Part shown: piece after piece, positions 7,261 through 42,237 of the stretch
Position numbering within the stretch: the stretch's first letter is position 1
Layout of the letters: each line of letters starts with the position of its first letter
Assembly (NCBI GenBank): GCA_024231215.1
Contig: JAAEQR010000034.1
Span: 12,668-76,667 of the forward strand
Origin: PVC group bacterium
Lineage (GTDB): Bacteria; Omnitrophota; Gorgyraeia; B26-G9
DNA length: 64,000 nt
Reading direction: 5' to 3'
Made by a program: the position numbers and the translations under genes
Notes under the pieces: model-generated
Databases searched by the model: none
Told to the model about the DNA's origin: nothing
What the model saw: the letters and a program-made list of their open reading frames with translations, nothing else

Positions 7261-7269
7261 AGAGCCACC

Positions 7270-7779: not shown

Positions 7780-8097
7780 TTAAATGCCATTGGCTATCAA
7801 ATCATCTAAAATTTTGCTGGCATTATAATATTGTTCATGTGCATTTTCATTGTCACTTCCGGTATGCAAATAAAATTGTTGTAGAACATACAAAACATTT
7901 TTCAATTTTTTCTGCATTTCTGCTATTTTATCTTCGCCAACAGCACTTAATTCATGCTTATGCAAAATGCTGGCTTCCTTTTTAAAGTTTGCCCCACACG
8001 AATTACATTCCCATCTTTCGTTATAAGTCCCATTACTACTAATTGTTGGCTTATATTTTACTATCGAACAAGCACATCCACAATTTTGTTCTTCCAT
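7780..8097 (-). CDS. Cys-rich zinc-finger protein
   Basis: CGCAC...C-x2-C pairs (CNSCGANF); AAGGAG SD. Confidence 0.45.
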   Translation of the reverse strand: MEEQNCGCACSIVKYKPTISSNGTYNERWECNSCGANFKKEASILHKHELSAVGEDKIAEMQKKLKNVLYVLQQFYLHTGSDNENAHEQYYNASKILDDLIANGI

Positions 8098-21844: not shown

Positions 21845-22393
21845 CTATACCCAGACTTCATTGAGACCTTTTTTAATCTCAGTAAAGCCTAGTAAAATTC
21901 TTTTTCTTTCCCAGCCGATACTTCGAAGATATTTATATAAATCTTCTTTCTTTAATCTTTTACAAAAATTCTCTTTTTCCTTTTTCTTGATTTCTGTTGG
22001 CGGGTTAAAGAAAATGTCAACGATGTCCTGAGAATCTTGGGACATATTCAGAATCGTCGCATCAATAATGCTATTGACGTTTTCCTGTCTTTTATCTTCA
22101 ACTTGAAAATCATCAATGTCAACAATAATTCTCCTTTCCCAAAAATGGTTTTTTCCTTCTCTTCTTCTCTGTTCCCCAGACAATTCACGACATTTTGTAT
22201 AGAGTCCAAAGTATAAAGAGTTTGATAAAAAATTCTCAAACTTTCCAATTTTGGGATCAAAATTCTCAGCACACTGACAAAAAATTAAATTCGCCTCAGA
22301 CAAAATCTCTTCTCTTTCCAAGCGATTTTTTCTCATCACTGAAGATACTGCACGATCAATAATAGGCTTTGAATCTAGATAAAGTTTTTCCAT
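21845..22393 (-). CDS. sigma-70-family-like protein (region 2 and HTH-like C-terminus), putative phage sigma factor
   Basis: EANLIFCQCAENFDPKIGKFENFLSNSLYFGL aligns with sigma region 2.2-2.3 (LiQeGniGLmkAvekFDPerGfkFsTYAtwwI). Confidence 0.4.
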   Translation of the reverse strand: MEKLYLDSKPIIDRAVSSVMRKNRLEREEILSEANLIFCQCAENFDPKIGKFENFLSNSLYFGLYTKCRELSGEQRRREGKNHFWERRIIVDIDDFQVEDKRQENVNSIIDATILNMSQDSQDIVDIFFNPPTEIKKKEKENFCKRLKKEDLYKYLRSIGWERKRILLGFTEIKKGLNEVWV

Positions 22394-22419
22394 AATGTTA
22401 CCCTCTTATAATAGTTTTT

Positions 22420-22466
22420 AAGATTTATAAAAATCTTATGTAAGGCTATTAAAAATTAATAGCCTT
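22420..22466 (-). promoter_or_regulatory. early-gene promoter/hairpin cassette (TTAATA-17-TATAAA; hairpins A 22420-22437, B 22442-22466)
   Basis: Hairpin A AAGATTTataaAAATCTT; hairpin B AAGGCTATTAA-aaa-TTAATAGCCTT; on the minus strand the -35 lies in an arm of B and the -10 in the loop of A. Confidence 0.45.
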
Positions 22467-22479
22467 ACCATAATGACTT

Positions 22480-22698
22480 TTAGTGATTTTTTTCGATCCC
22501 ATCAATTTCGATGATCTGAGAATTGGTTATTTTAACCAAACTGTCTATAATTCTATCTGCCTCCACTTCCGATGCACAATCATATTGACCGATGTATTCA
22601 CAGTGGTAATCTAAAAAATATACATCATAAGCATATGATCCGTCGGTCAACTTTAATTTTACCTTTTGGATTTTTTCTACTCGTTGTGTATCTCCCAT
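22480..22698 (-). CDS. hypothetical protein
   Basis: 72-aa ORF following a cassette. Confidence 0.45.
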   Translation of the reverse strand: MGDTQRVEKIQKVKLKLTDGSYAYDVYFLDYHCEYIGQYDCASEVEADRIIDSLVKITNSQIIEIDGIEKNH

Positions 22699-23081: not shown

Positions 23082-23573
23082 TTAATGTAAATCACCATTT
23101 TCAAGATATTCATAATTATTCATTATTGAATGTTCATTAAATTCATCAATTGACATTCTATAATCGAGTGTTGAATATCCGTCCTTTTCAATTTTGTAAC
23201 AAATATCATCGAAAATAGACTTGAATTCAATTTCTGTGTCCTCATCTGTACCCTCATCAAAAAAAATATTAACGCTATTCCGATGAGAATAACGTCCTAT
23301 ATGTTTTATTGTAATATCGTTTTTTTTCCATTGAAATTGACCAATAAAACAAGCTCCATCTCCTTGACGATAGGATAGAGAATAATATACTTTTAAATCG
23401 TCAAAAGTTATATTATTCTCATCTAACAAATATTTACAATATTCTGTCAGGTCTTCTGGTAAAAAAGGATAATCTTCTAGTTCATACCATTTTTCAATAG
23501 CTTTTTCTTGACTTTCTCTAGACAGTTCGCTGAATTCATAAATAATAATTTCTTCTTTTCTCATAATAATCAC
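23082..23573 (-). CDS. hypothetical protein
   Basis: 163-aa ORF. Confidence 0.5.
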   Translation of the reverse strand: MIIMRKEEIIIYEFSELSRESQEKAIEKWYELEDYPFLPEDLTEYCKYLLDENNITFDDLKVYYSLSYRQGDGACFIGQFQWKKNDITIKHIGRYSHRNSVNIFFDEGTDEDTEIEFKSIFDDICYKIEKDGYSTLDYRMSIDEFNEHSIMNNYEYLENGDLH

Positions 23574-23595
23574 CTTTTTAATAATAATAGTTTTT

Positions 23596-23641
23596 AAGAT
23601 TATAAAAATCTTATGTAAGACTATTAAAAATTAATAGCCTT
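23596..23641 (-). promoter_or_regulatory. early-gene promoter/hairpin cassette (hairpins A 23596-23612, B 23617-23641)
   Basis: Near-identical copy of the 22420..22466 cassette (A shortened by one T; B with one A/G change). Confidence 0.45.
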
Positions 23642-23654
23642 ACCATAATGACTT

Positions 23655-23975
23655 TTAAAGGTTAGGATCAAAACCGTTTTCGAGGCAATCTCTTTTTAAT
23701 CCGTCCTTAACATTCCAGAGAATCGGGTAATTGTTGTTCATTTCATATTGTCTATAATCTTTCTCTGGAATCCAACCACTCTTCACCATTGCCAGCAATG
23801 CCGTTTCTTTGTATTGTTCTCCGTAACCATATTCAAAAGGGCAATACAAAACCTTGCTATCGCTAGCCCTTACAATTCTCGCTGAATGGTAAGTGTTGCC
23901 GTTAATCTTGTCAAACCATCGGCAACCAGTGACAAAAAACTTGAGTTCTCTTTTTGTTGTCTTTTCGTTGTACAT
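23655..23975 (-). CDS. hypothetical protein
   Basis: 106-aa ORF; AAAGGAGAAAG SD; the iteron array lies directly upstream. Confidence 0.5.
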   Translation of the reverse strand: MYNEKTTKRELKFFVTGCRWFDKINGNTYHSARIVRASDSKVLYCPFEYGYGEQYKETALLAMVKSGWIPEKDYRQYEMNNNYPILWNVKDGLKRDCLENGFDPNL

Positions 23976-23998
23976 AATTCTTTCTCCTTTTTAATAAA

Positions 23999-24054
23999 GT
24001 TCTCGCCTTCCGAGTTCTCGCCTTCCGAGTTCTCGCCTTCCGAGTTCTCGCCGA
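23999..24054. repeat. iteron-like direct repeats, 3.7 x 15 bp (GTTCTCGCCTTCCGA)
   Basis: Units at 23999-24013, 24014-24028, 24029-24043, and a partial unit 24044-24054; GC-rich island in AT-rich DNA. Confidence 0.8.
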
Positions 24055-24067
24055 GTGTAACGAAAAT

Positions 24068-24226
24068 TCTCAAAACCAAAAATCCTGGATTTTCGAAATT
24101 TTTTCCAGCACCGAAAAGAAACATTTTTTGATGTTTCTGCAGCACCGAAAAGAAACATTTTTTTGATGTTCCTAGACTATCCCGAAAATTTTCAGAATCG
24201 AAAAAACCAGGTTTTTCGAAATTTGA
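24068..24226. repeat. cluster of inverted repeats plus a 33-bp direct repeat (x2) in a non-coding leader
   Basis: AAAATCC-t-GGATTTT (24079-24093); two copies of CAGCACCGAAAAGAAACATTTTTTGATGTTTCT (24106-24138, 24139-24172), each holding palindrome AGAAACAT-n6-ATGTTTCT; CGAAAAAACC-a-GGTTTTTCG (24199-24218). Confidence 0.7.
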
Positions 24227-24257
24227 AATTTTTTAAAAAACCCTTAATAATAAATTT

Positions 24258-24310
24258 AAGATTTATAAAAATCTTATACCTAGCTATCAATAATAAAAAT
24301 TGATAGCTAG
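24258..24310 (-). promoter_or_regulatory. early-gene promoter/hairpin cassette (TTGATA-17-TATAAA; hairpins A 24258-24275, B 24280-24310)
   Basis: Hairpin A AAGATTTataaAAATCTT; hairpin B CTAGCTATCAAT-aataaaa-ATTGATAGCTAG (12-bp perfect stem). Confidence 0.5.
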
Positions 24311-24320
24311 TTACAAAATT

Positions 24321-25220
24321 TTAATCATTTTCTTTATAATCTACATTGTTATTATAATGTAGATTATTAGAATATTCATTTTCACAAAATTCAATGCAAG
24401 TTTCACAAAGTAATAATCCCTCATACGCCTCTAAATCATCAACTTGATGATCAGTGTCGCAAAATTCGCATTTTGTGACAACATTTTTATCAGCGTATTT
24501 TGATTTATTACTTTTTTTACCGTAAACTTGACCAGTATATTTATTATAATCATAACCACTTCCATAAACACTCCCGCAAAATCGATCATAATAATCGTTT
24601 GACATATACTTATTTTTATAAGTATATTTCTCTTGTTTATAAGTAGTGTTGGAATAATAAATATTTTTGTCTTTTTCAAAATCACCAAAAGAAAATAAAT
24701 ATCCTTTTTCGTCAAGTGCTATAACTCTAGATCCTTTTAAAGATATTTTCAACAATTTTTTAATATGATCTTTTTCAAAATCACAATTAGAAAAATTTGC
24801 TAAAATGTCTTTCACGAAAATTTGAGAATCTGACAAATTTTCATTTTTTTTGTCAGTAATGGAGATAACTCCATTGTGTGCAAAACCTTTTTCGCTGATA
24901 ATTTCAGTACTTTGTAATAATGAAATATTGTCAGTGATAGGAAAAGGATGACAATTTTCCGCCTTTACTTTTCCCGCGGTTGCTATCCTAGCGTGAATAA
25001 CTATACTGACATCCTGTTCATGTAATCCAAAATCAAAAAGTTTTGCATTCAAACTTTTCCTTAATGCTTTCGCACTTGAAAAACCTTTTTTAATAAATAC
25101 TCCTTTACTGGGAATATTAAACATATAACCAGCGCCATCGGGATTATTTATCAAACAATTTTTAACAATACTGTTATCCGGTAAAAATTGCTTTTTCGGT
25201 TTGTAAATAATAATACACAT
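24321..25220 (-). CDS. class-II glutamine amidotransferase-like (Ntn hydrolase, YafJ-type) protein with C-terminal zinc ribbon
   Basis: N-terminal Met-Cys (MCIIIYKP; Cys2 nucleophile after Met removal); HARIATAG fits the H-x-R-x-A-T-x-G motif of GATase-II; C-terminal CEFCDTDH...CETCIEFC. Confidence 0.5.
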   Translation of the reverse strand: MCIIIYKPKKQFLPDNSIVKNCLINNPDGAGYMFNIPSKGVFIKKGFSSAKALRKSLNAKLFDFGLHEQDVSIVIHARIATAGKVKAENCHPFPITDNISLLQSTEIISEKGFAHNGVISITDKKNENLSDSQIFVKDILANFSNCDFEKDHIKKLLKISLKGSRVIALDEKGYLFSFGDFEKDKNIYYSNTTYKQEKYTYKNKYMSNDYYDRFCGSVYGSGYDYNKYTGQVYGKKSNKSKYADKNVVTKCEFCDTDHQVDDLEAYEGLLLCETCIEFCENEYSNNLHYNNNVDYKEND

Positions 25221-25249
25221 AATAGTTAACCCTTTTTAATAATAAATTT

Positions 25250-25302
25250 AAGATTTATAAAAATCTTATACCTAGCTATCAATAATAAAAATTGACAGCT
25301 AG
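25250..25302 (-). promoter_or_regulatory. early-gene promoter/hairpin cassette (hairpins A 25250-25267, B 25272-25302)
   Basis: Same A/B hairpins as 24258..24310, one mismatch in B's right arm. Confidence 0.5.
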
Positions 25303-25316
25303 CTACAAAATTTCAA

Positions 25317-26615
25317 TTAAATTCCCTTTTCAATACAAGCTTGCAAAAATTGCTTGTATTTTAATTTTCTAGCCATTTCAAGAACATTTTGCCAGTTCAT
25401 TTTTTGAATTGACATTATACTATCATTTTCGGCGATAATAGCAATCAAATTAGTTAATTGCATAAATCCAATTAAAGAATTTATTTTTAATGTTCCGCGC
25501 CATAATCTAAACTCAATTGTTGAAATGGGTATTAAATTAACACTTTGATAGCGTCCTTGCTTGACATTTTTTTCTTTAATGCCAGTGACAAGCTTTTTAT
25601 TTAATTTTCCTAGATCTTCATTTTTATGACAATAATTCAGATTATTTCTTTTTGAGAAAAGAAATAAATGTTGCCACAATTTCTCGAAAATTAAACAAAT
25701 TTTAGTTGCTGACAATTCATAATTTGAAAAATATTGACGATTTACATGGATATGAAATCCACAATTTCCCGAATTATGAGAAACGGCATTATAATCACGA
25801 CATATTTCAACTAATTTTTGTAAAGGGAATTTATTGACAAAAAAATCTAGAGTGCAAGGTTGTGAACAAATTTCAATTCCTAGATCTGACAATGAACCGT
25901 CTGTTTTTAAATAAAAATATTTTTCATTTTCACTTAAATTATATAATTCATAAACTAAATCGGGTACATTATCAATTTTTTCAATCTCTAGCTCCCAACC
26001 TAAAAACAAGTCAGTTGCTTTTTTTTGTGAAATGGAATGAAAAGTCATTCTATTCGGTGTATAATCATAATTATGTAAGTGTTCAATGCACCCATGATCA
26101 TTATAGCAATCTTCACAATAAGATCGGTGACATGATTCACAATAATAAGATTGATCATCGTGATATAAATCACCACAACGTGAACACGTAAAGTATTCTT
26201 CTAGACAATTTTCGCATAAACAATGATCATTATTATAATGATAATGATCATTGTCCCGATGTATATCACATTCACAACTATCACAAACTAGGTAATCATT
26301 TTCATAACAAGTTTGACAAACTATTCTATTTCCATCATTTATAGAAATAGAATCATCATTAAGATGAACATTTCCGCAATCGTCACACTCAAAAAATAAT
26401 TCCTCAAAACATTCTTCACAATAATTTTTTCTGTTAATTCGCTGTAGATTTTCCCTATCTCTTTCAAAATGTTCCTTACAATGACTACACTTAAAAACAT
26501 TGTTTTTAAAACATTCTGAACAATAAGAAAAATCCTCATTGTGATATTCAGTTACAACTTGTCCACAACTAGAACAAACTTTTTCCGCTTGTACTTCTTT
26601 TTCCTCTTTTTCCAT
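25317..26615 (-). CDS. Amidoligase_2-family-like protein with N-terminal Cys-rich zinc-ribbon repeats
   Basis: N-terminal ~190 aa hold more than ten C-x2-C pairs; the C-terminal half has GWELEIE, KTDGSL..GIEICSQP and CGFHIHV, resembling amidoligase (GS-like) motifs. Confidence 0.45.
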   Translation of the reverse strand: MEKEEKEVQAEKVCSSCGQVVTEYHNEDFSYCSECFKNNVFKCSHCKEHFERDRENLQRINRKNYCEECFEELFFECDDCGNVHLNDDSISINDGNRIVCQTCYENDYLVCDSCECDIHRDNDHYHYNNDHCLCENCLEEYFTCSRCGDLYHDDQSYYCESCHRSYCEDCYNDHGCIEHLHNYDYTPNRMTFHSISQKKATDLFLGWELEIEKIDNVPDLVYELYNLSENEKYFYLKTDGSLSDLGIEICSQPCTLDFFVNKFPLQKLVEICRDYNAVSHNSGNCGFHIHVNRQYFSNYELSATKICLIFEKLWQHLFLFSKRNNLNYCHKNEDLGKLNKKLVTGIKEKNVKQGRYQSVNLIPISTIEFRLWRGTLKINSLIGFMQLTNLIAIIAENDSIMSIQKMNWQNVLEMARKLKYKQFLQACIEKGI

Positions 26616-26646
26616 AATATTTAACCCTTTAAATAATTATAAATTT

Positions 26647-26697
26647 AAGGTTATAAAAACCTTATAACTAACTATCAAAAATTATTTGATAGTTAGA
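26647..26697 (-). promoter_or_regulatory. early-gene promoter/hairpin cassette (TTGATA-17-TATAAC; hairpins A 26647-26663, B 26668-26697)
   Basis: A AAGGTTataaaaAACCTT (compensated variant of AAGATTT/AAATCTT); B CTAACTATCAAA-aattat-TTTGATAGTTAG. Confidence 0.5.
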
Positions 26698-26712
26698 TAC
26701 AAAATTTTAAAA

Positions 26713-26988
26713 TTAAACAGACTCGGATAATATGCAATCTAGACAATAATTTTTCCCATTTATTTTATTTGTCTTTTCTTTATATCTTTCAAAATATCCA
26801 TTGCAATGGCTACACTTAAAAATATTTTTTAGATACGTTTTTTCTTTTCGGTCAAATAATGTAATCTCTTTCCAAATTTTGTTATTTGACTTAACATTAA
26901 AACGATCAATCGCCTGTTTTTTATAACAGTATGTCCACTCATAAACCGTTCCGCCATTTCGTACCATTGTTATTAAAAATCTTTTCAT
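26713..26988 (-). CDS. small zinc-ribbon protein
   Basis: CSHCNGYFERYKEKTNKINGKNYCLDC. Confidence 0.45.
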   Translation of the reverse strand: MKRFLITMVRNGGTVYEWTYCYKKQAIDRFNVKSNNKIWKEITLFDRKEKTYLKNIFKCSHCNGYFERYKEKTNKINGKNYCLDCILSESV

Positions 26989-27018: not shown

Positions 27019-27069
27019 TAAAGTTTATAAAAAACTTTATAACTAACTATCAAATAATATTGATAGTTA
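27019..27069 (-). promoter_or_regulatory. early-gene promoter/hairpin cassette (hairpins A 27019-27037, B 27042-27069)
   Basis: A AAAGTTTataaaaAACTTT; B CTAACTATCAA-ataat-ATTGATAGTTAG; TTGATA-18-TATAAA on the minus strand. Confidence 0.45.
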
Positions 27070-27082
27070 GATACAAAATTTT

Positions 27083-27226
27083 ATTAAGCTATTTTTTGCC
27101 TGATTGCATTACGTCTAGAAAAAACTTTACCATTTTTATCAACTTCAAAAATGGTTTGAACATAAATAATTTTATTTCTTAAGTCTACAGCTTTTATCCA
27201 TTTTGTTTTTTTGATAATTTTCATTT
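27083..27226 (-). CDS. small basic protein (47 aa)
   Basis: Manually translated MKIIKKTKWIKAVDLRNKIIYVQTIFEVDKNGKVFSRRNAIRQKIA; AGGAAT SD; not in track. Confidence 0.3.
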
Positions 27227-27652: not shown

Positions 27653-28139
27653 TTTAATAATTATAAAATGACTTTATGTAAAAACATTATAAATAATGTT
27701 TTTACAACTAATTACATTGAAATCTGAAATATACAATTAAAAAATGCATATCGCTTGTAATTAGATTTTAGGGTTTTTATTATGTTAAAGGGTTTTGATT
27801 GGGATTACTTTATTTGATTTACTTGCTTTTTGCAAATTTCCGGTTTGCCCGTTTTCAATCAATCAAGATGTTTAAAACATCTTTTTTTTCATCCGTATAT
27901 TTTCAAAGATCAATAGTTAAAAACAACTATTTTGAAATAAACATTTAACATATAAAATCATTAAATATTTATTTACTAACTGTATATAGTATCGCTATAT
28001 ATAGTCAATTTGTCAATAGCTATTTTAAAAAAATTGCCTTTTTTTAGAAAAAAATTCAATAAGTTAGTCTAGCCTAATTTAGCTAATTATAACACTAATT
28101 AGAAAGTAGTAACACGATTTATCCTACACAATTTAAGAA

Positions 28140-28610
28140 ATTACAATAATTACATAATCCAGGATAATTGAATCATTTTAAATAATTACTAAAAATGAAT
28201 AAAATGGCTATAATCGGGATAACAAGCATTTTAAATAATTGATCTATTTTAAGTAATTACAATAAATGAAGTAAGTACAGAAAATGATTATAATAAACAA
28301 TTACTAAAATTAAACTAATTACAGAAAATGAATAAAATACCAGTATCATAATAAACAATTACAATAATTTAAGTAATTACAAAAAATGAACAGAACAACC
28401 ATTTTCCATAATTACAAAAAATGAAATAAATAACCTGGTTTTAATAAATTGAATCATTTTAAATAATTACTAAAAATAGACAAAATAAGCCAATACCATT
28501 TTAAACAATTACTTAAAATGAATAAATGAAAAAACTTACAAAATACTACAAACAATTACAATAAGTACTTAAAATGAATAAAATGAAGTAATTATTAAAA
28601 ATGTTAAAAA
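28140..28610. repeat. array of about 12 degenerate direct repeats, core AATTAC(T/A)AAAAATGAATAAA
   Basis: Copies near 28186, 28255, 28300, 28314, 28358, 28375, 28410, 28465, 28507, 28554, 28573, 28593; a longer ~30-bp unit TTGAATCATTTTAAATAATTACTAAAAAT occurs at 28168 and 28449; ORF-free. Confidence 0.75.
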
Positions 28611-29082: not shown

Positions 29083-29160
29083 GGGGATCCCCCGCTTAAG
29101 CCATCCGAACATAACCATCCGCTTAAGCCATCCGAACATAGCCATCGCTTAAGCCATAAA
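29083..29160. repeat. GC-rich palindrome GGGGGATCCCCC followed by 2.6 x 27-bp direct repeats (CGCTTAAGCCATCCGAACATAACCATC)
   Basis: Repeats at 29093-29119, 29120-29145 and a partial copy at 29146-29160, immediately upstream of the first rightward promoter. Confidence 0.7.
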
Positions 29161-29174
29161 AACAGAAAAAAGTG

Positions 29175-33513: not shown

Positions 33514-34512
33514 ATGCCAAAGATACTAATGCTTGATCCTAACCCTAAATCTGCAGTTTCTTTTTATCGCAGTATCGGGACTTTTTCATATCTTCACAGG
33601 TTAGACCCAAATGTTCATTACGAACTGCTTTCCGTTTACAACTGGAATACATGGATGGGCGCAGATATTCTGTATGTGCAGAGGCCATACGCTGACGATC
33701 ATCTTGGAGCGATAGTTGAAGCACAAAAATGTAATGTAAAAGTGTGGGTTGACACAGATGATTTACTTCATGAAATCCCGAATTACAATCCTAACCACAG
33801 AACTTTTAACAATCCTAAAGAAAAATTCCTGGATAATTTCTTAAACTCAGTAAAAAGAGCGGATGTTGTTACTGTTACAACTGAAGTTTTAAAGGATTAT
33901 TATTCTGAGTACAATGAGAATGTTCAGATAGTGGAAAACGCTCACAATGATTATGCTTTCCCTTTTATGAAACTTATCGGGGATTCAGCAAAGGCAATAA
34001 ACTGGAGAGGGAGCAACACTCACCGGATGGACGTTCTATCGGTTGCTCAACAGATAGTGAATGTCCGTGAAAAGCATAAAGACTGGAAATGGATTTTTGT
34101 CGGAAACGATTTATGGTATATAACAGAACTTCTCAAAGGGAACGCCATAGAGATTCCCGAAAAACCTATTCTGACATTCTTTGAACTCCTCAGAACCGTC
34201 GGCAGTTCTATACAGGTTGTCCCTCTCGTTGATAATAATTTTAATCGTGCTAAATCCTCTATATCCTGGATAGAGGCTACTTATGGGGGAATGACTACGG
34301 TTGCTCCGAACTTCCCAGAGTTTAATAAGCCGGGCTGTTTGTGTTATGAAGGAGAAGAACAGTTTGAATATTATCTTGAGAAATGTATTAAATCTAAAGC
34401 TTTTCGTCAGGAAAATTATGAGAAATCCTTTAAGTATATAAAGGAAAACTTACTGTTAAGTCAGGTTAACCGGAAAAGGATGGATATCATAAACGAGTTG
34501 AGGAATAAATGA
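33514..34512 (+). CDS. putative glycosyltransferase (GT-B-like), first gene of the sugar operon
   Basis: 332 aa; Rossmann-like C-terminal half; weak assignment. Confidence 0.3.
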   Translation: MPKILMLDPNPKSAVSFYRSIGTFSYLHRLDPNVHYELLSVYNWNTWMGADILYVQRPYADDHLGAIVEAQKCNVKVWVDTDDLLHEIPNYNPNHRTFNNPKEKFLDNFLNSVKRADVVTVTTEVLKDYYSEYNENVQIVENAHNDYAFPFMKLIGDSAKAINWRGSNTHRMDVLSVAQQIVNVREKHKDWKWIFVGNDLWYITELLKGNAIEIPEKPILTFFELLRTVGSSIQVVPLVDNNFNRAKSSISWIEATYGGMTTVAPNFPEFNKPGCLCYEGEEQFEYYLEKCIKSKAFRQENYEKSFKYIKENLLLSQVNRKRMDIINELRNK

Positions 34513-35027
34513 TAGTTGCAGATTATATAGTCAAGTATCTTGAAGATTATGGAGTAAAACACTGCTTCTCCGTTGTCGGTGGAGGGAGCATGTGGTTGAA
34601 CAACTCTTTCGGAAAATCAAAGAAAATTAAAACTGTATATATGCACCATGAACAGGCTTGCGCGATTGCCGCAGAGGGATATTCCCGAGTGAATAATGAT
34701 TTGTCTGTGGTTTGTGTCACCACTGGCCCCGGAGGATTAAACTGTCTTACAGGGGTAATGGGGCAATGGACGGATTCTGTCCCTGTCCTGTATATTTCAG
34801 GACAGGTTGATTCAAGAACAATCAAAACAAGTAATCTTCGTCAGTTGGGGGATCAGGAAGTTGATATAATTAGTGCGGTTAAACCAATAACCAAATTCTC
34901 TCTTTTATTAAGGGATAGTATTGATTTGTATTTTTGGTTGCGTATTATGATTAACACGGCGATGGCGCATAGGAGAGGGCCAGTGTGGATTGATATCCCC
35001 TGGGATGTTCAAAAAGAAAAGGTATAA
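34509..35027 (+). CDS. TPP-dependent enzyme, N-terminal (Pyr) domain subunit (ALS/YerE-like)
   Basis: YIVKYLEDYGVKHCFSVVGGGSMWL...HHEQACAIAAEGYSRV...VVCVTTGPGGLNCLTGV...DSVPVLYISGQV: canonical TPP_enzyme_N including the catalytic Glu in HEQ; stop overlaps the next ATG (TAATG). Confidence 0.75.
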   Translation: MIVADYIVKYLEDYGVKHCFSVVGGGSMWLNNSFGKSKKIKTVYMHHEQACAIAAEGYSRVNNDLSVVCVTTGPGGLNCLTGVMGQWTDSVPVLYISGQVDSRTIKTSNLRQLGDQEVDIISAVKPITKFSLLLRDSIDLYFWLRIMINTAMAHRRGPVWIDIPWDVQKEKV

Positions 35028-35452
35028 TGAATATAGAAAGATATGAGAACCCACTGATAATAGCTGGTCACGGAATACGCTTATCTGGCGCGATAGATTT
35101 ATTCCACGAATTGTTAGACAAGTTAAATATCCCCGTAGTTACAACCTTTAATGGATTTGATATAGTAGCTTCTGATCATCCGAATTTTGCAGGAAGAATA
35201 GGAACCATGGGTACTCCCGAAGGGAATAAGATATTAAGGGAAGCGGATCTGGTTTTGTGTATAGGGACTCGGAACAATGTCAGGCAAATAGGTTATAAGA
35301 AAGAGGCCTTCGCCAAGAGTGCAAGAAAAGTGGTTCTTGTGGATGTGGATGAAGATGAATTATATAAAACTGGCGTTGGTTTAAAAGTGAGAAGGTTCTG
35401 TTGCATGGATGCGAAACAATTTATTCAGGAGTGTTTGGATTACGATGATTGA
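35027..35452 (+). CDS. TPP-dependent enzyme, central domain subunit
   Basis: PLIIAGHGIRLSGA...LNIPVVTTFNGFDIVASDHPNFAGRIGTMGT...ADLVLCIGTR aligns with the ALS central domain; TGA overlaps the next ATG (ATGATTGA). Confidence 0.7.
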   Translation: MNIERYENPLIIAGHGIRLSGAIDLFHELLDKLNIPVVTTFNGFDIVASDHPNFAGRIGTMGTPEGNKILREADLVLCIGTRNNVRQIGYKKEAFAKSARKVVLVDVDEDELYKTGVGLKVRRFCCMDAKQFIQECLDYDD

Positions 35453-35999
35453 TCCATATAATTTTATAAAAGTATTAACAAAAAATTTACCGGAAGACGC
35501 TATAGTGGTTTGCGCTAATGGAACCCCATGCGTTACAATGTTTCAAGAAGGTGTTGTCAAGAAGGGGCAGAGGATCTTCTGGAACTCCGGATGTGCTGCC
35601 ATGGGTTATGCCCTTCCTGCTGCGATAGGGGCTCATTATGCAAGTGGCAAAGAAGTAATCTGCATAGAGGGTGACGGGAGTTTGATGTTTAATTTACAGG
35701 AACTTCAGACAATAGACCACCATGAGCTCCCGATTAAATTGTTCGTATTTAACAATGGTGGTTATCACTCAATAAAGGAAACTCAGGATGTTTTTTTTAA
35801 AGGCGATTATCATGGCAGTGCCTTGGGAGATGTTAGTTTTCCGGATTGGGAAGAAGTCGCGGAAACATTCAACTTCCCATATTTTGTTATGGATGGGGAC
35901 GATAGAGGTGTGATTGCTCACTTCCCTTTTAATAAGTTTAAAAATGTTTTTATTGAAGTTAAATTAGGTGAATATAAATTTAGGAGGCAGGAATTATGA
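35445..35999 (+). CDS. TPP-dependent enzyme, C-terminal (PP) domain subunit
   Basis: TPP-binding motif GDGSLMFNLQELQTIDHHELPIKLFVFNNGGY (GDG-x25-NN); start taken at the in-frame ATG 35445 overlapping the upstream stop, rather than track 35409. Confidence 0.75.
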   Translation: MIDPYNFIKVLTKNLPEDAIVVCANGTPCVTMFQEGVVKKGQRIFWNSGCAAMGYALPAAIGAHYASGKEVICIEGDGSLMFNLQELQTIDHHELPIKLFVFNNGGYHSIKETQDVFFKGDYHGSALGDVSFPDWEEVAETFNFPYFVMDGDDRGVIAHFPFNKFKNVFIEVKLGEYKFRRQEL

Positions 36000-36463
36000 A
36001 TGGTTATCAAGAGCCTTGTCCTAAATGCGGGACACTTTCTTCCGGCTGTTCGGTCTTCACGAACGGGGCGATTTCTCAAGACTTTTGTAAATGTCCTGAA
36101 TGCGGTATTGCTTTCCCAAAAAAGGGTTCAACGGCAAAAGTTGAAATAATTGATGATGAAGAATTCTTTTCGGTACCCAAACCAGAAAAATTCTCATTAA
36201 AAGAAATATGTATTTGCGCAGCAGTAAAAGCAGTTGATGGAACCATTATTCGTGGACACAGGCACAGGGATTGTAGAGATGGGATAATAAGGAGAGGGAA
36301 AGAACCCATGAAAGAATGGGCTGGAGATGGTTTTATCACTTCTTACGGGAGGTTCGTTGACAGGATAGAGGGTTACGAGTTGATGAAATCTATCGACTGG
36401 GAATCTGTTAATCCGGAAGGGTATCAGAAGTGTGAGTGGTTATTCTCGGAAGATTTATATTAA
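35996..36463 (+). CDS. zinc-ribbon protein with uncharacterised C-terminal domain
   Basis: CPKCG...CKCPECG; ATGA-coupled to the upstream gene. Confidence 0.45.
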   Translation: MNGYQEPCPKCGTLSSGCSVFTNGAISQDFCKCPECGIAFPKKGSTAKVEIIDDEEFFSVPKPEKFSLKEICICAAVKAVDGTIIRGHRHRDCRDGIIRRGKEPMKEWAGDGFITSYGRFVDRIEGYELMKSIDWESVNPEGYQKCEWLFSEDLY

Positions 36464-36478
36464 AAGAGAGGTATAATT

Positions 36479-37261
36479 ATGAATAAGTTAGAATACGAAA
36501 TGATTGAAACTCTTAAGCGCTTGAAGAATGATTATGGGTGTATACAGATTAAGGCTGAGTTCGAGAACGAGGGAAGTCGTCAGGTAGAACTTTGTCGGCT
36601 TAAAGATGTAATAAGCAAAGTAGACATACCGTTAATTCTTAAGATTGGCGGTGTAGAAGCAGTAACAGATATATACGAGGCCTTGACGATAGGGGCGAAG
36701 GGGATAGTTGCTCCCATGGCCGAAACTGCTTACGCGCTTTCTAAATTTATTGATGCTGTGGAAAAATTCGTTCCGAAGGATAATCGGGAAGATGTTGAAT
36801 TTGCCGTGAACATTGAGACTATTACAGCGTATGAAAATTTTGAAAAAATGCTTAAATTAAAGAACATTGATGTTCTCCAAAGCGTGACAGTCGGGCGGGT
36901 GGATTTTACAGGTTCACTCGGGGAAGATAGAAATTATGTTGATACAGTAACAATGCGTGAACTTTGCAAAAATATCTTTTCTAAAGCTAAGGCTAAAAAT
37001 TTACGAACAGCTTTGGGCGGGGCTATTTCTTCTGCGTCAGAAACTTTCCTGGAAACTTTAACTGAAGAAAATTTATTGAACAAATACGAAACTCGGAAAA
37101 TTGTATATGATATCGAAGGGTTAAAAACCTATAAGGAAGGTTTAGAGGAAGGAATAAAATTTGAACTTCAGTGGTTGAAAAGTAAAGAGAGATATTATCA
37201 TCTGATAGCAATTGAAGACGAAAAAAGAATAAAAATGTTGGAGGAGAGAGTCAATGGGTGA
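36479..37261 (+). CDS. TIM-barrel aldolase/lyase-like protein (HpcH/HpaI or PEP-utilising family?)
   Basis: 260 aa; KIGGVEAVTDI...IVAPMAETAYA resembles aldolase/lyase barrels; weak. Confidence 0.3.
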   Translation: MNKLEYEMIETLKRLKNDYGCIQIKAEFENEGSRQVELCRLKDVISKVDIPLILKIGGVEAVTDIYEALTIGAKGIVAPMAETAYALSKFIDAVEKFVPKDNREDVEFAVNIETITAYENFEKMLKLKNIDVLQSVTVGRVDFTGSLGEDRNYVDTVTMRELCKNIFSKAKAKNLRTALGGAISSASETFLETLTEENLLNKYETRKIVYDIEGLKTYKEGLEEGIKFELQWLKSKERYYHLIAIEDEKRIKMLEERVNG

Positions 37262-38300
37262 GTGTGGAATATGTGGTCATGAATTAAACAAAGACGTTCT
37301 GGTTCTGGAGAATATCCCGGAAAAAACATTCTGTTTCTCAGACAAAACTGTTACTTTAAACATCGCGAAGTGTGGTCACTGCGGAGTAGTGCAGTTATTT
37401 GACGTTCCATTAAACGATGATTTCAGGGATGTCCATCGAAGTATAGAATCAATGCCCGGCCACCGGATGAAAAAGAAGAAAGACTTGGACGATTTTATAG
37501 AAGAGTTTGGTTTGTGGAGCAAAAGGTTTTTCGAAATGGGTTGTGGCAATGGACAGTATTTGGATATTCTCAGGGAAATAGGTGTTGAGTGCGACGGGTA
37601 TGAAGCCAATGAAGACAACATAGATGAATGTATAGACAAAGAGTATTGTGTTTCCGACGGTGTTGCTTTTAAAGAGGAAATTTTTAATAAATATGATGTT
37701 ATTTTTTCTTTTTATTTTTTAGAGCATATGCCTGATCCGGTGGATGTCTTAACAAATGTTTATGACAAGCTTAACCCCGGAGGGATGATTTACATAGAAG
37801 TCCCGAACTATAAGTACATAGAAAAAGATGGGCTCTGGCTTGAGTTCACAAGAGACCACAGGTTTTATTATGACCTTTCTTCTATGAGATTTTTATTATC
37901 AAAAACTGGCTTCAAATTGCTTAAGATAACTCCGGGAGACTTGACTTTAAAAGTGATAGCGAAGAAACCGGACGACTTCGAGAATGTCCGGGAAAGCATG
38001 GAAAAAGACATAGTCGATTTTGATATATTAACTAACAAGATAGGAAATTATGTTATAGTTGGCGCAGGACATTATACTCAAACACTGTTAAACAAGACTG
38101 CTAATAAGCCTGTACAAATATATGATTCCGTTCCCGACAAGATAGGGAAAATTCTTTGTGGAGTGAAAATTTTACCCCAGGGAGAGATTCGGGATTGTGA
38201 ATTTAATAATATTATTATAAGTTGCGGGGCGTACAATCAAGAAGCGGAGAAAAATATTGAAAGACTTACGGAAGGAAAGAATATAATTATCTGGGGGTAG
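37254..38300 (+). CDS. SAM-dependent C-methyltransferase-like (N-terminal zinc ribbon + class I MTase + C-terminal Rossmann-like domain, TylC3/NovU architecture)
   Basis: CGICGHEL...CGHCG; MTase motif I FEMGCGNGQYLD; the three-part layout matches NDP-hexose C-methyltransferases. Confidence 0.55.
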   Translation: MGECGICGHELNKDVLVLENIPEKTFCFSDKTVTLNIAKCGHCGVVQLFDVPLNDDFRDVHRSIESMPGHRMKKKKDLDDFIEEFGLWSKRFFEMGCGNGQYLDILREIGVECDGYEANEDNIDECIDKEYCVSDGVAFKEEIFNKYDVIFSFYFLEHMPDPVDVLTNVYDKLNPGGMIYIEVPNYKYIEKDGLWLEFTRDHRFYYDLSSMRFLLSKTGFKLLKITPGDLTLKVIAKKPDDFENVRESMEKDIVDFDILTNKIGNYVIVGAGHYTQTLLNKTANKPVQIYDSVPDKIGKILCGVKILPQGEIRDCEFNNIIISCGAYNQEAEKNIERLTEGKNIIIWG

Positions 38301-38301
38301 C

Positions 38302-39402
38302 ATGTCGTATACACAGAGAGAAGAACAAGTAAGAGAGTCTATTGAAGTTCGCAAACCTGTCGCATGGGCTAAGATTCAGCAAACTGACCAGAGAGTAAAA
38401 GAAGGAAAAAGCATCGCCCTTTTACAACTGCAATACAGATATGTCTGTAATGAAGTTTGCAAACACTGTGCTATAGAACGGTTTAAAGTTAACTTGGAAG
38501 GTAGAAAATTAACTCCTGCCGATGTGAAAGATATTGCAGATCAGGCTCATGAGTATGGGCTATTTTCTATCTGCATTTCGGGAGGTGAACCGTTAATCTT
38601 TCATGATCTGGAACAGGTAATAGACGCTATCGGCCCAGAAAGATTCATATTATCAATGGACACTAATGGGTTGGCTTTATCTCAACATGAGATAAAATGG
38701 CTGGTAACGAAAGGGGTTGACCGTATTCACCTGAGTATTGATGGGTTACAGGAAAATCACGACGAGTTTAGACACGAAGAAGGAGCATGGCAGCATAATA
38801 TAGACATGCTTCCATATTGTAAACAGTATGGGCTTGGAGTTGTTGTGAACATAGTTGCCACTAAAGATTTGGTAAGAAGCAGAGAAATAGAAGAACAACT
38901 TGAGTTTATACAGAAGTTTGGTTTTCATGCTTCTTTGATTTATGCGAAACCAGTTGGTAATTTTGAAGAGGCTGGAGACCAGGTTTTAAACAAAAAAGAT
39001 TTTGCATATCTTGAAACTTTAACGAAAAAGTATAACTGTTCAACTCACCTTACTCCCGCTTACGGCAGAGATGTTGGCTGTCTGTGTTTCAAGCGCCACT
39101 TTTCAATACTGCCAAACGGGAAAGTCCTTCCCTGTCCATGGCTCCCGATTTCTATGGGGAACGTACTGGAAGAAAAACTGGAAACAATTATAACAGGGTC
39201 GTTGATGAATCCATGGTTTAGCTGGAAGCATAAACACACTTGTCATTCGGGAAATCAGGATTCTTATTTTTATAAAAATGTTGTTTCTCAGTTAGATGAA
39301 CTCCACGATCTCTTTGGATATCCGGTTGACTGGAAATTGTTGAATTGGCATTTTGAATACTTCAGGAAGAGTTCCACTAAAATTACTGAGAAGGGGAGCT
39401 AA
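38302..39402 (+). CDS. radical SAM enzyme with SPASM/twitch-like C-terminal Cys cluster
   Basis: CNEVCKHC (C-x3-C-x2-C), ISGGEPL, C-terminal CLCFKRHFSILPNGKVLPCPW. Confidence 0.75.
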   Translation: MSYTQREEQVRESIEVRKPVAWAKIQQTDQRVKEGKSIALLQLQYRYVCNEVCKHCAIERFKVNLEGRKLTPADVKDIADQAHEYGLFSICISGGEPLIFHDLEQVIDAIGPERFILSMDTNGLALSQHEIKWLVTKGVDRIHLSIDGLQENHDEFRHEEGAWQHNIDMLPYCKQYGLGVVVNIVATKDLVRSREIEEQLEFIQKFGFHASLIYAKPVGNFEEAGDQVLNKKDFAYLETLTKKYNCSTHLTPAYGRDVGCLCFKRHFSILPNGKVLPCPWLPISMGNVLEEKLETIITGSLMNPWFSWKHKHTCHSGNQDSYFYKNVVSQLDELHDLFGYPVDWKLLNWHFEYFRKSSTKITEKGS

Positions 39403-40371
39403 ATGGAGATTGGTGAAAGAGATATTGTAGAGGAAGATATAAAAAAAGTATTATCTGAAAATCTGCCATGGAACAGGCTGAGAAATAAAACGATAGCGGT
39501 TTCCGGTTCAAGAGGTTTTATTGCTTCGTGGATAGTTAAATTATTAGAATCAATACAGGAAGAATATAATATTACAATCTGGCATATCAATAAACCTGAA
39601 TATGATATTAACAGGTCTCTGTTCAGTATTGGTGTCCCCAAGAGAGTAGATTATATTTTTCATGCAGCCAGTTATGCGTCACCTCTAAAGTTCAAAGAAA
39701 ATCCTGTAGATGTGATCTTGCCGAATACGATTGGTACTCATAACCTGTTGAAATTGGCAGATGCGAAAGAGGCTGAGTTTGTATACTTCAGCACATCGGG
39801 GGTTTACGGGTGGCATGATTTTGATGACTACCCTTTGTCCGAAAAACAATTCGGCAGACTTGATTGTTCTGAAGTAAAGAACTGTTATCTTGAATCAAAA
39901 AGACTGGGGGAACAGTTGTGTGTTTCTCACAGTTATCAGTATGATATAGAAATCAAGATTCTCCGGCTGGGGATATGCTATGGCCCGGGGTTAAGCCTGG
40001 ATGATGGTCGCGTGATGAATACTTTTATAAAGAAAATACTTGATAAAAAAGAACTACCTGTATACAATGAGCATGTCTATCGGAGTTTTATGTATATAAC
40101 GGATGTTCTTAGCGCAATTTTTACAATTTTATTCCACGGGGAAAATAGCCCATATAATGTATCAGCAGACAAAGAAATTTCCATCCTTCAATTAGCCCAA
40201 TTGTTTTCTTCCATGTACCCGAACTCAAAATTGAGTTACCTAAAACGGACAGACAGGTTGAGTGTTGACTTCAACAGGACATGGATGAATACAGGAAAAT
40301 TGAAAAATCTCGGCTGGGAACAAAGAGTCAGCTTAGAAGATGGTATAGAAAGAACAGTGGAGAGTTACTAG
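39403..40371 (+). CDS. NAD-dependent epimerase/dehydratase (extended SDR)
   Basis: Gly-rich IAVSGSRGFIAS and catalytic Y-x3-K (YLESKRL). Confidence 0.75.
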   Translation: MEIGERDIVEEDIKKVLSENLPWNRLRNKTIAVSGSRGFIASWIVKLLESIQEEYNITIWHINKPEYDINRSLFSIGVPKRVDYIFHAASYASPLKFKENPVDVILPNTIGTHNLLKLADAKEAEFVYFSTSGVYGWHDFDDYPLSEKQFGRLDCSEVKNCYLESKRLGEQLCVSHSYQYDIEIKILRLGICYGPGLSLDDGRVMNTFIKKILDKKELPVYNEHVYRSFMYITDVLSAIFTILFHGENSPYNVSADKEISILQLAQLFSSMYPNSKLSYLKRTDRLSVDFNRTWMNTGKLKNLGWEQRVSLEDGIERTVESY

Positions 40372-41561
40372 TGAGAAAAATATATTACAATGAAGCGATA
40401 ATTGATGAAAACGAAATAAATTCTATATGCCAGTTTATAACAGGGAAAGCCAACAGGCTTGCATATGGAGAAGAAGTTTTAGTGACAGAAAAGAAGTTAG
40501 CTGATTTTTTAAAAGTCAAACATTGTCTTCTGACTAATTCGGGGTCTTCCGCAAACTTGTTGGCTTTTATGGCATTGACATCCCCTGAATTAAAAGAGAG
40601 AAGGATAGAGCGAGATGACGAGATAATAACCACTGCGTTAGGTTTCCCTACAACTATTTCTCCTATCGTGAATTATGGAGCCGTCCCGGTCTTTGTGGAT
40701 GTTGATCTATGGACTATGAATATAAACATAGAAAGAATGAAAGAAGCTTTATCTCCGAAAACAAAAGCTGTAGTGGTGGCGCATACTCTCGGGAATCCTG
40801 CCAATATAGATGCTATAATGGGCTTCTGTGAAGAAAACGGGTTATACTTTATTGAGGACAACTGTGATTCTTTAGGCAGTAAATATAACAATAAACTTAC
40901 AGGCACTTTCGGTGATATTGGAACTTCTTCTTTTTACCCTGCACATGCGATAACAATGGGCGAAGGTGGAGCGGTATACACAAATAATACAGAACTGCAT
41001 AACATAATGCGCTCTATGAGAGACTGGGGAAGAGATTATAAATGTTCGGAATGTACCTGGGACTGCAAGAAAAGATTTGATTCCGGGTATGATTGCAGAT
41101 ATACATATTCTCATTTTGGATATAATTTAAAAGTAACTGAAATGCAAGCTTTAATTTTAAACAAACAAATAGATAAGCTTCCCATGATAATTGAAAAAAG
41201 GAAACTTAACTGGAAGAAATTACGAGTTAAGCTGGATGGTTTAGGTTTTCCTTTTCAAAGCCCTACTCCCAATTCTGATCCATTGTGGTTCTCTTTTGTT
41301 TTAATAGCAAAAGAACATGACAGGGACGACTTAACAGAATATTTAGAAAGAAACGGAATAGGGACGAGAGTTATTTTCGGCGGGAATCTTACAAAACAAA
41401 AATGTTTCAAAACGCTTTCTCCGCTCTACAGGGTGGTGGGGGATCTCAAAAATTCTGACTATATAATGGAGAATGCGTTTTTTATCGGGTGCCATCCTGG
41501 AATGACAGATGAAGACATGGATTACATTGTGGAGGCAATAGAGAGGTATGTTCAAAGATGA
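40371..41561 (+). CDS. DegT/DnrJ/EryC1-family PLP/PMP enzyme with His replacing the Schiff-base Lys (E1/ColD-type sugar 3-dehydratase signature)
   Basis: Family motifs LTNSGSSANLLAF, AVPVFVDVD, KTKAVVVAHTLGNP, FIEDNCDSLGSKY, GDIGTSSFYPAHAITMGEGG; the position of the conserved Lys (FSFhxxKxiT) holds His (PAHAIT); Cys-rich insert CSECTWDC...DCRY; GTG start overlapping the upstream stop. Confidence 0.65.
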   Translation: MRKIYYNEAIIDENEINSICQFITGKANRLAYGEEVLVTEKKLADFLKVKHCLLTNSGSSANLLAFMALTSPELKERRIERDDEIITTALGFPTTISPIVNYGAVPVFVDVDLWTMNINIERMKEALSPKTKAVVVAHTLGNPANIDAIMGFCEENGLYFIEDNCDSLGSKYNNKLTGTFGDIGTSSFYPAHAITMGEGGAVYTNNTELHNIMRSMRDWGRDYKCSECTWDCKKRFDSGYDCRYTYSHFGYNLKVTEMQALILNKQIDKLPMIIEKRKLNWKKLRVKLDGLGFPFQSPTPNSDPLWFSFVLIAKEHDRDDLTEYLERNGIGTRVIFGGNLTKQKCFKTLSPLYRVVGDLKNSDYIMENAFFIGCHPGMTDEDMDYIVEAIERYVQR

Positions 41562-42237
41562 CAAACTCGTAAAGGTAAAGAACACAATATTCAATGATGA
41601 AAATTTAATAAAAATAGGGGATCTGTTCTGGACAAAAGAAGACATCCCTGCGTATGAGTATTTAAAAGATAGCCATAAAAGAGAAATGGAAAGTATTCTC
41701 CCACATCTTGTGGGGAATGAAGTTGCCGTTCAAGCTGGCGGTCACTGCGGATTCGTGATCAAAGAATTAGAAGAACATTTCAAAAGGATTTACACTTTTG
41801 AACCGGATAACACAATGTTCCTGGCTCTTTGCTTGAATGTACCAAATAAAAATGTTTATAAGTTTCAAGCCTGTCTGGGGGAAAGACACAAAATGGTTGA
41901 TATGGAAATAAATCCTATCTGCCCTCATGCTGGAGCAAAGTATGTTAAGGGCAGGGGAAATATTCCAATGCTGGTTGTAGATGATCTCGCTTTAGATTGT
42001 TGTGACCTACTGATGCTCGATCTTGAAGGGAATGAGTATAAAGCCGTTCTTGGAGCATCTGAAACAATTCAGAAATTCCACCCCGTATTGTGTGTAGAAA
42101 GATACTGGGGGCCGAGAACAACTGGGCTTCCAGAGTCATTTTTTGACTCCCTCCTGGGCTACTTAAATTATGAATTAGTTGATAGAGTTGGAGAGAACAA
42201 ACAGGATTTTATCTATAAATATAAGGGGGTCAAATGA
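41548..42237 (+). CDS. FkbM-family methyltransferase
   Basis: VAVQAGGHCGFV and LMLDLEGNEYKAVLGA match the Methyltransf_21 (FkbM) core. Confidence 0.6.
   Translation: MFKDDKLVKVKNTIFNDENLIKIGDLFWTKEDIPAYEYLKDSHKREMESILPHLVGNEVAVQAGGHCGFVIKELEEHFKRIYTFEPDNTMFLALCLNVPNKNVYKFQACLGERHKMVDMEINPICPHAGAKYVKGRGNIPMLVVDDLALDCCDLLMLDLEGNEYKAVLGASETIQKFHPVLCVERYWGPRTTGLPESFFDSLLGYLNYELVDRVGENKQDFIYKYKGVK

Follow-up and report, generated by a model that had tools for sequence, protein, structure and literature searches.

According to papers citing Iyer et al. (2009), that study predicted from genomics that an amidoligase and a class-II glutamine amidotransferase (GATase) are paired in phages, and the cassette of the podoviruses phiEco32, LUZ24, tf, PaP3 and RIO-1 is described in papers citing Iyer et al. 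(2009) and Hardies et al. (2013) as a combination of this kind, with an Amidoligase_2 protein and a class-II GATase encoded in the early region of the genome. The literature that we searched contains no biochemical study of any Amidoligase_2 protein; a preprint on a Klebsiella 'amidoligase' was set aside as a precedent, since it concerns an ATP-grasp enzyme. Here we analyse such a pair in a stretch of 64,000 nucleotides, referred to below as the window, from a contig attributed to a PVC-group bacterium (GenBank assembly GCA_024231215.1, contig JAAEQR010000034.1, positions 12,668 to 76,667), which encodes a terminase large subunit and a portal protein and so represents a tailed phage. A preliminary description of the window had interpreted two adjacent open reading frames (ORFs), at 24321-25220 and 25317-26615, as a GATase-II plus amidoligase pair forming a candidate ligation system for peptides or metabolites, and had stated that such pairs are predicted and experimentally uncharacterised. 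The latter statement agrees with the literature, the interpretation is supported by our analyses, and both ORFs proved intact at these coordinates, with the refinement that they are read on the minus strand. The pair thus adds a typical new example to a phage module that is already known but has no experimental characterisation.

The first gene of the pair (25317..26615, minus strand, read from 26615 to 25317) specifies a protein of 432 residues which, as judged from the ORF itself, Pfam and PHROG matches, a structural model and Foldseek, consists of an N-terminal zinc-ribbon array and a C-terminal carboxylate-amine ligase domain of the glutamine synthetase (GS) fold. With 131 homologs found, the ORF is not a product of chance; NCBI holds a protein 100% identical to it, MCP4648765.1, named 'hypothetical protein' and encoded on a contig of 90 kb that was binned with a PVC-group bacterium. 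The C-terminal half contains the motifs GWELEIE, KTDGSLSDLGIEICSQP and CGFHIHV, in which the preliminary description had seen a likeness to Amidoligase_2, and the likeness is confirmed by the respective Pfam profile (PF12224), which scores 29.5 bits against a gathering cut-off of 22, with the alignment confined to residues 244-333, i.e. profile positions 73-162 of 245. The PHROG matches include family 16683 (4.9e-41) and family 7469, annotated as 'amidoligase enzyme' (6.5e-14). A sequence search of the PDB with the profile of the ligase family retrieved no relative for the catalytic half. The AlphaFold model, built from an alignment of 52 sequences (predicted local distance difference test, pLDDT, 88.3; predicted template-modelling score, pTM, 0.72), finds its best matches among solved structures in the GS-fold carboxylate-amine ligases YbdK/GCS2, PafA, Dop and GS, with YbdK (1r8g) at the top (E = 2e-5) and PafA and Dop at a Foldseek probability of 1.0, and the GS-like character proposed earlier is borne out by structure prediction. 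Predicted viral structures that group with the model are annotated as 'amidoligase' in mycobacteriophage Tesla, Pseudomonas phage tf, Salinivibrio CW02, Cellulophaga phi14:2, a crAss-like phage and a giant virus.

Alignments of the ligase family reveal 15 invariant positions, among them E208, E210, D239, S241, E248, H288, H290, R323, N360, T366, E368 and R370. By motif resemblance, we infer that nine of these (E208, E210, D239, E248, H288, H290, R323, E368 and R370) correspond to the GS-type pattern of metal, ATP and phosphate ligands. The gene is accordingly predicted, from its sequence and the model, to encode an ATP-dependent carboxylate-amine ligase of the GS/GCS2/PafA fold in which all residues for binding metal, ATP and phosphate are retained, and the alignments and the fold match place the catalytic domain at residues ~200-432 (25320..26018, minus strand).

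The second gene (24321..25220, minus strand, read from 25220 to 24321) encodes a protein of 299 residues, recognised from its ORF, model, Foldseek matches and invariant residues as being of the class-II amidotransferase type, that is, as a putative N-terminal nucleophile (Ntn) hydrolase. Its reading frame opens at the first possible start codon with MCIIIY, so that the nucleophile Cys2 noted in the preliminary description holds up well: Met-Cys begins 118 of 120 homologs and 131 of 132 independent cluster representatives. The other two features named there, a HARIATAG motif and a C-terminal zinc ribbon, are likewise present, as VIHARIATAG and as CEFC-x17-CETC (residues 251-275) closing the protein. 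The catalytic domain, delimited by alignments, model and Foldseek, comprises residues 1-200 (24621..25220) and is followed by a disordered linker rich in Tyr, Asn and Gly (residues ~201-247), after which residues 248-289 form a zinc ribbon plus helix (24354..24479), defined by pLDDT and by CxxC motifs at 251 and 272. The model is most reliable in residues 1-190 (pLDDT >94), reaches ~90 in residues 248-289 and falls below 50 in residues 215-243. Foldseek matches it to GFAT-1/GlmS (1e-6), PurF and EgtC, all at probability 1.0. The earlier assignment to YafJ-type GATase-II stands as far as the class-II fold and the catalytic residues are concerned, but the protein stays below the cut-offs of the corresponding Pfam families: GATase_4 (PF13230) scores 18.6 against a cut-off of 23, and GATase_6 13.4 against 27.

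C2, R78, N116-G117 and D131 are invariant in alignments of 39 and 53 Ntn sequences. Judging by motif position, R78, N116-G117 and D131 presumably correspond to R73, N98-G99 and D123 of GlmS. The protein is predicted to be a Cys1 Ntn hydrolase with the class-II GATase fold, in which Arg78, facing the alpha-carboxylate, and Asp131, facing the alpha-amino group, would be kept for holding glutamine or a gamma-glutamyl moiety. The two observations that the preliminary description had regarded as fatal to its interpretation, a ligase with no match to amidoligase or GS folds and an Ntn cysteine that is not conserved, were both looked for and neither was made. The Ntn clade is large and lies outside the reach of current Pfam models: 211 homologs were found, down to E = 3e-59, and an exhaustive profile search of 1.84 billion representatives yielded 11,471 proteins of the clade at E<=1e-10 and 4,834 representative clusters (50% identity) at E<=1e-30. 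The exact sequence of the window's Ntn protein is absent from a collection of 15 billion proteins, in which no cluster reaches >=90% identity to it, and the products of its two upstream neighbours on the same NCBI contig are present there; the gene was apparently left uncalled in the public annotation.

The distribution of the two genes across viruses shows how tightly they belong together. Among viral contigs, 452 contain a relative of the ligase; 80 of these were analysed and fell into 51 dereplicated groups, 49 of them with sufficient sequence downstream of the ligase. An MCIII-type Ntn gene lies within 150 bp downstream of the ligase in 26 of the 49 groups, often overlapping the ligase stop codon, and is found nearby in 9 more. 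The remaining 14 groups seemed at first to have no Ntn partner, a conclusion that had to be rejected, because in 13 of them the same position is occupied by a canonical class-II GATase that lay below the first hidden Markov model threshold. This canonical partner starts with MCCLFG or MCGLFG, carries RGTDATGIAY, passes the cut-offs of Pfam GATase_6/7 and gives partial matches to the glmS, purF and asnB models. A ligase and a class-II Ntn enzyme hence co-occur in 48 of the 49 groups, and clustering of the neighbours in 55 loci identified no third gene family recurring with them. The two genes form a near-obligate two-gene module with two alternative Ntn clades. Searches of defence-system and NCBIfam libraries returned no matches for the window's pair, and a DNA search of the pair region against phage genomes gave no match.

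Small integrase/Rep/resolvase elements on several gut metagenome contigs have the pair as their sole evident cargo; four of these loci (L006-L009, ~600-7800) show the arrangement integrase, excisionase-like helix-turn-helix (HTH) protein, repressor-like HTH protein, Phage_CRI-type Rep, ligase, Ntn gene, 51-aa ORF and resolvase. A serine recombinase gene lies downstream of the pair in 10 loci. Six loci (L016, L021, L060, L074, L053 and L087) have either two ligase paralogs around one Ntn gene or a tandem ligase-Ntn-ligase-Ntn arrangement. Genes for RNA repair are located near the ligase in two unrelated phages, with RtcB in one (L010/L011, 7379-8581) and KptA plus RlaP in the other (L002, 138-749 and 5922-6932); they do not recur in the neighbour clustering of the 55 loci. 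The Clostridioides difficile phage AR1086-1 was dismissed as an example of an Ntn-paired ligase, its gene following the ligase being RlaP.

The N-terminal half of the ligase, described previously as Cys-rich, is indeed so, but it is not a loosely Cys-rich region: residues 14-170 (26106..26576, minus strand) contain 11 CxxC motifs and make up five tandem LIM-like zinc-ribbon units of the form CxxC-x14-20-CxxC, as mapped from the CxxC motifs, the family profile and Foldseek. The family profile matches the LIM domains of PINCH at 2.8e-6, and the ligase model retrieves LIM structures at a Foldseek probability of ~0.9; the window's protein itself gives no match to Pfam LIM (PF00412) at E<=1, a domain precomputed for some of its homologs. 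Nearly all family members possess the array, which is strongly acidic in 34 of 35, with a median net charge of -23; in the window's ligase the array likewise has a net charge of -23, as against +3 for the catalytic domain. Since the array is acidic, we take it to be suited to docking on a basic protein surface rather than to binding nucleic acid. Some long ligases additionally show weak C-terminal matches to SH3/Tudor-like domains.

The Ntn protein carries one further copy of the array's ribbon unit at its C-terminal end, and another is found in an upstream ORF of 91 codons (26713..26988, minus strand). The latter contains a single unit paralogous to unit 2 of the ligase, to which it is related at both the protein level (BLASTP 1e-8, 59% identity over 27 residues) and the DNA level (75% identity over 96 nt). 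The 91-aa protein is possibly an accessory component, its membership of the system being uncertain; an equivalent ORF beside the pair is not conserved in other loci. The idea that the Ntn tail and the ligase array share an adaptor was rejected, as they show no locus-specific match (21.1 versus 20.5 bits); the Ntn tails vary across loci.

A clue to the chemistry is offered by phage C75C1, in which a domain of the Ntn family is fused to gamma-glutamylamine cyclotransferase (GGACT; PF06094, 76.8 bits). The fusion is recurrent, with 242 clusters and a Met-Cys start in 109 of 120, and it can lie downstream of a short Amidoligase_2 gene devoid of the zinc ribbons in a phage early region. EgtA and EgtC, a GS-fold ligase and a class-II GATase-type hydrolase, act on gamma-glutamyl amides, and PafA and Dop follow a similar logic. 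Together, the fusion and these precedents point to gamma-glutamyl-amide chemistry, which is further supported by the best fold matches of the ligase (YbdK/GCS2 and PafA), as these enzymes make gamma-glutamyl bonds, and by the occurrence of EgtC among the fold matches of the Ntn protein. We tentatively favour the reading that the phage expresses the pair early as a self-contained module of two enzymes, by which an amide bond of the gamma-glutamyl type is formed and cleaved on some component of the host. The ligase would activate a carboxylate, most likely the gamma-carboxylate of glutamate, as an acyl-phosphate and then couple it with an amine; docking of the ligase on a basic host protein, the likely acceptor or reaction platform, would be mediated by the acidic zinc-ribbon array; and the Ntn enzyme would hydrolyse the gamma-amide in either glutamine or the gamma-glutamyl adduct, thereby feeding, editing or erasing the mark according to the logic of PafA/Dop or EgtA/EgtC. 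The purpose of such a module might be early host takeover or counter-defence, in keeping with the early position of the genes, ahead of the sigma-like and replication genes; the anti-defence literature yielded nothing on the amidoligase/Ntn family.

Several considerations weigh against this proposal. The fusion with GGACT belongs to a neighbouring branch whose ligases are devoid of the zinc ribbons, and no GGACT-like ORF is present in the window or in the 93 loci of the subfamily with the array; moreover, a count with regular expressions indicates that the fused Ntn domains mostly have SNG, not HNG, and that many have no recognisable SD followed by T, S or I in the region equivalent to Asp131. 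The activated acid is only presumed to be glutamate. The array could instead bind the tail of the partner protein or mimic DNA, and co-expression of a writer with its eraser looks futile unless the two differ in the bond they attack or in their timing. The true amidotransferases GlmS and PurF outrank EgtC among the fold matches of the Ntn protein, and the interchangeable GATase clades, together with the tight translational coupling, would be explained at least as well by a generic glutaminase subunit. A close rival, possible if somewhat doubtful, is a glutamine-dependent amidation complex in which the Ntn protein would serve as the glutaminase subunit (releasing glutamate and ammonia from glutamine) and the ligase would turn an ATP-activated carboxylate into a carboxamide, with AsnB, GatCAB and MurT/GatD as analogues. 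The near-universal adjacency of the genes and the frequent overlap of start and stop codons suggest a stoichiometric complex; the substitution of two divergent class-II clades beside one ligase family, one of them partially matching amidotransferase models, points the same way, as do the suitability of the invariant Arg78 and Asp131 for free L-glutamine, the top rank of GlmS/GFAT/PurF, and the loci with two ligases around a single Ntn gene, which resemble a shared amidotransferase subunit. However, no GS-fold enzyme is known to us that is supplied with ammonia by a partner glutaminase, GS itself binding free ammonium; the recurrent GGACT fusion would go unexplained; and the variable, often long C-terminal tails of the Ntn proteins are not expected of a mere ammonia donor. 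We regard as rather unlikely a further possibility, that the pair performs a pupylation-like viral tagging of proteins. The array would then dock on basic host proteins (nucleoid, ribosomal, RNA-polymerase or defence proteins) early in infection, the ligase would add gamma-glutamyl or another amino-acyl group to their lysines or amidate their carboxylates, and the Cys1 Ntn enzyme would be the matching deamidase or eraser; if true, phages would prove to encode a new kind of post-translational modification directed at the proteins of their hosts.

Other proposals concern the target or the physiological context of the pair. Papers citing Iyer et al. (2009) credit that study with a peptidoglycan-modification reading of the phiEco32/LUZ24-type cassette, and they call the combination of amidoligase and GAT-II (with ATP-grasp, COOH-NH2 ligase and gamma-glutamyl cyclotransferase, GGCT) peptidoglycan-modifying. 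A modification of peptidoglycan precursors or of another envelope peptide that blocks superinfection would also suit the presence of the pair on integrative elements and prophages, which often carry exclusion functions. We nevertheless consider it improbable: only the two genes are found in the window and in the 55 analysed loci, without the extra ligases and GGCT; by reading the sequences, neither protein has a signal peptide or a membrane segment; the acidic LIM-like array suggests a protein partner; and the fold family of the ligase extends to a giant virus of eukaryotes, with the pair also reported from predicted archaeal viruses. It is, besides, a hypothesis about the target, compatible with either chemistry. 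A role in the hypermodification of phage DNA bases is suggested by the study of Lee et al. 2021 (PMC8989533), in which uncharacterised amidoligase and glutamine-amidotransferase genes are co-associated with 5-HMUDK/aGPT-Pplase thymidine-hypermodification clusters, and the window's phage does encode several DNA methyltransferases and a fusion of DNA polymerase III alpha with a uracil-DNA glycosylase (UDG) domain. This role seems very unlikely, given that no 5-HMUDK, aGPT-Pplase, dUMP hydroxymethylase or TET/JBP was found among the ~45 window ORFs scanned (small ORFs in part), that no hallmark gene of this kind recurs beside the pair in the 55 loci, that the strong acidity of the zinc-ribbon array argues against DNA binding, and that the pair also resides in tiny integrative elements that carry no replication or DNA-modification genes. 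Least probable of all, in our view, is an auxiliary metabolic gene pair boosting nitrogen, glutamine or glutathione metabolism of the host, as has been proposed from annotation alone for a Planctomycetes phage and for OM43 phages. Neither protein is closely homologous to the housekeeping enzymes GS and GshA or to housekeeping GATases, both having no NCBIfam matches and only remote fold similarity, and neither the array nor the early, takeover-type position of the genes fits such a role.

The window is organised in two divergent transcription arms that switch near 28 kb, and the pair, being the third and fourth gene from the point of divergence, lies near the start of the leftward arm, a genome position similar to that in L003, MEP402 and Marvin. 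Downstream of it in the same arm follow genes for a sigma-like protein, a SNF2 helicase, a primase, a replication initiator and DNA methyltransferases, and further on those for a DnaB-like helicase, the DNA polymerase III alpha-UDG fusion and a gp32-like single-stranded DNA-binding protein. The sigma-like ORF (21845-22393, minus strand, 182 residues), which comes immediately after the early genes, matches Sigma70 region 2 at 19.5 bits, below the cut-off, and is possibly a phage sigma factor. The polymerase fusion (2928-6602, minus strand) is a protein of 1224 residues with PHP, NTPase and finger domains and a C-terminal domain of the uracil-DNA-glycosylase superfamily.

The preliminary description had further claimed that each gene of the pair has its own cassette promoter. 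A cassette of ~95 nt is indeed found before each of them and before at least four neighbouring genes, dominated by a hairpin; a role as a promoter is plausible. Copies on the minus strand precede the 91-aa ORF (27025-27100), the ligase (26612-26715), the Ntn gene (25217-25320), the next transcription unit (24225-24325), a 163-aa ORF (23570-23662) and the sigma-like gene (22390-22487), and the cassette pattern has 9 matches against 0.96 expected. The intergenic cassette before the ligase (26616..26712, minus strand), in which the hairpin is accompanied by a -35/-10-like pair and by AAAGGG as ribosome-binding site, has a folding energy of -27.7 kcal/mol (z = -6.6), and that before the Ntn gene (25221..25316, minus strand) one of -28.9 kcal/mol (z = -7.0); overall, the ~23-bp hairpins have z-scores of -5.7 to -7.0. 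Their inner stem of ~11 bp occurs in three different, mutually compensating sequences. From the 3' arm onwards the cassette reads TTGATA or TTAATA, 17 nt, TATAAA, TATAAC or TATAAT, and then AAAGGG, and it is this -35/17/-10-like arrangement that makes a promoter plausible. A simple promoter scan flagged only the TATAAT copy before the 163-aa ORF, the other copies being passed over because the scan accepts only a second hexamer that ends in T. The cassette may be a unit of a terminator-like hairpin and a promoter, or an element of RNA processing or stability.

Several further features surround these genes. The region where the transcription arms diverge contains an AT-rich array of about nine ~40-nt repeats (28130-28610; AATTAC..AAAAATGAA), a probable origin or regulatory region, and just to the right of it are three tandem 27-nt repeats (29092-29171; CCGCTTAAGCCATCCGAACATAACCAT). 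Between a cassette and the ORF at 23975..23655 there is a repeat-rich 5' leader of ~250 nt (23976-24220, minus strand) with two 34-nt repeats and four 15-nt repeats (cgagaactcggaagg), in which no convincing ORF and no Rfam match were found; an Rfam scan of the whole interval 21.5-29.5 kb gave nothing meaningful. On the plus strand, a modification cluster (33514-42237) encodes a glycosyltransferase, a split thiamine-pyrophosphate enzyme similar to phosphonopyruvate/sulfopyruvate decarboxylases, an HpcH/HpaI-like protein, a methyltransferase, a radical SAM-SPASM enzyme, an NAD epimerase/dehydratase, a DegT/DnrJ/EryC1 aminotransferase and an FkbM methyltransferase, and it possibly represents an amino-sugar or phosphonate pathway.

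Four points are new to the picture of this module: its near-obligate composition of two genes, the Ntn partner coming from either of two clades; the acidic, LIM-like array that is presumed to serve in docking; the ribbon unit common to three genes in a row; and, in the sister branch, the recurrence of the fusion with GGACT. With ~4,800 clusters of the Ntn clade at 50% identity and 452 viral contigs with a relative of the ligase, the pair, annotated by prediction alone since 2009, ranks among the most widespread enzyme modules of unassigned function in phage early regions, and the identity of its substrate would reveal either a new chemistry of host takeover or anti-defence or a new post-translational or metabolite modification. 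The strict two-gene unit, the acidic, putatively protein-docking array and the GGACT-fused sister branch provide handles for experiments. As the copy in the window comes from an uncultured phage known from a metagenome-assembled genome, the cultured carriers Marvin and MEP401/402 are better experimental systems.

Several known systems share part of the logic or composition of the pair. EgtA and EgtC of ergothioneine biosynthesis likewise combine a gamma-glutamyl ligase with a class-II GATase-type Ntn hydrolase, which removes the gamma-glutamyl group, but they belong to a metabolic pathway with the intervening EgtB, have no zinc ribbons and are not set in a phage context. PafA and Dop have in common with the pair the GS-like fold of the ligase and the principle of a ligase and an amidase acting on a gamma-glutamyl amide; they differ in that both enzymes are of the GS fold, whereas the hydrolase of the window is of the Cys1 Ntn type, and sequence identity is ~10%. 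No conserved small ORF that could represent a Pup-like tag accompanies the pair across loci. YbdK/GCS2 is related to the ligase at 13-14% identity and a TM-score of ~0.35. The phiEco32/LUZ24-type cassette, whose representative in Pseudomonas phage tf contributes an amidoligase to the fold matches of the window's ligase, has, as citing papers describe it, an ATP-grasp ligase, a COOH-NH2 ligase and a gamma-glutamyl cyclotransferase in addition, none of which was detected by Pfam or PHROG matches in the ORFs neighbouring the window's pair; its GATase is larger by these descriptions (~486 residues, compared with 299), and the zinc-ribbon array distinguishes the window's ligase from it. The most similar arrangements are those of mycobacteriophage Marvin (cluster S; gp105/gp106) and the Methylophilales phages MEP401/402 (gp06/gp07), for none of which a function has been assigned. 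Their pairs are located in early or end regions of the genome, with identities to the window's proteins of only 22-29%; the Ntn protein matches Marvin gp106 at a BLASTP value of 3e-15, and the Marvin ligase, mis-named 'glutamine amidotransferase domain protein' and having fewer CxxC motifs, matches that of the window at a tblastn value of 1e-12. All these phages, together with the closest metagenomic relatives of the window, nonetheless carry the pair in the same order, the ligase being followed by the Ntn gene, which in Marvin and MEP401/402 belongs to the same family and starts with Met-Cys.

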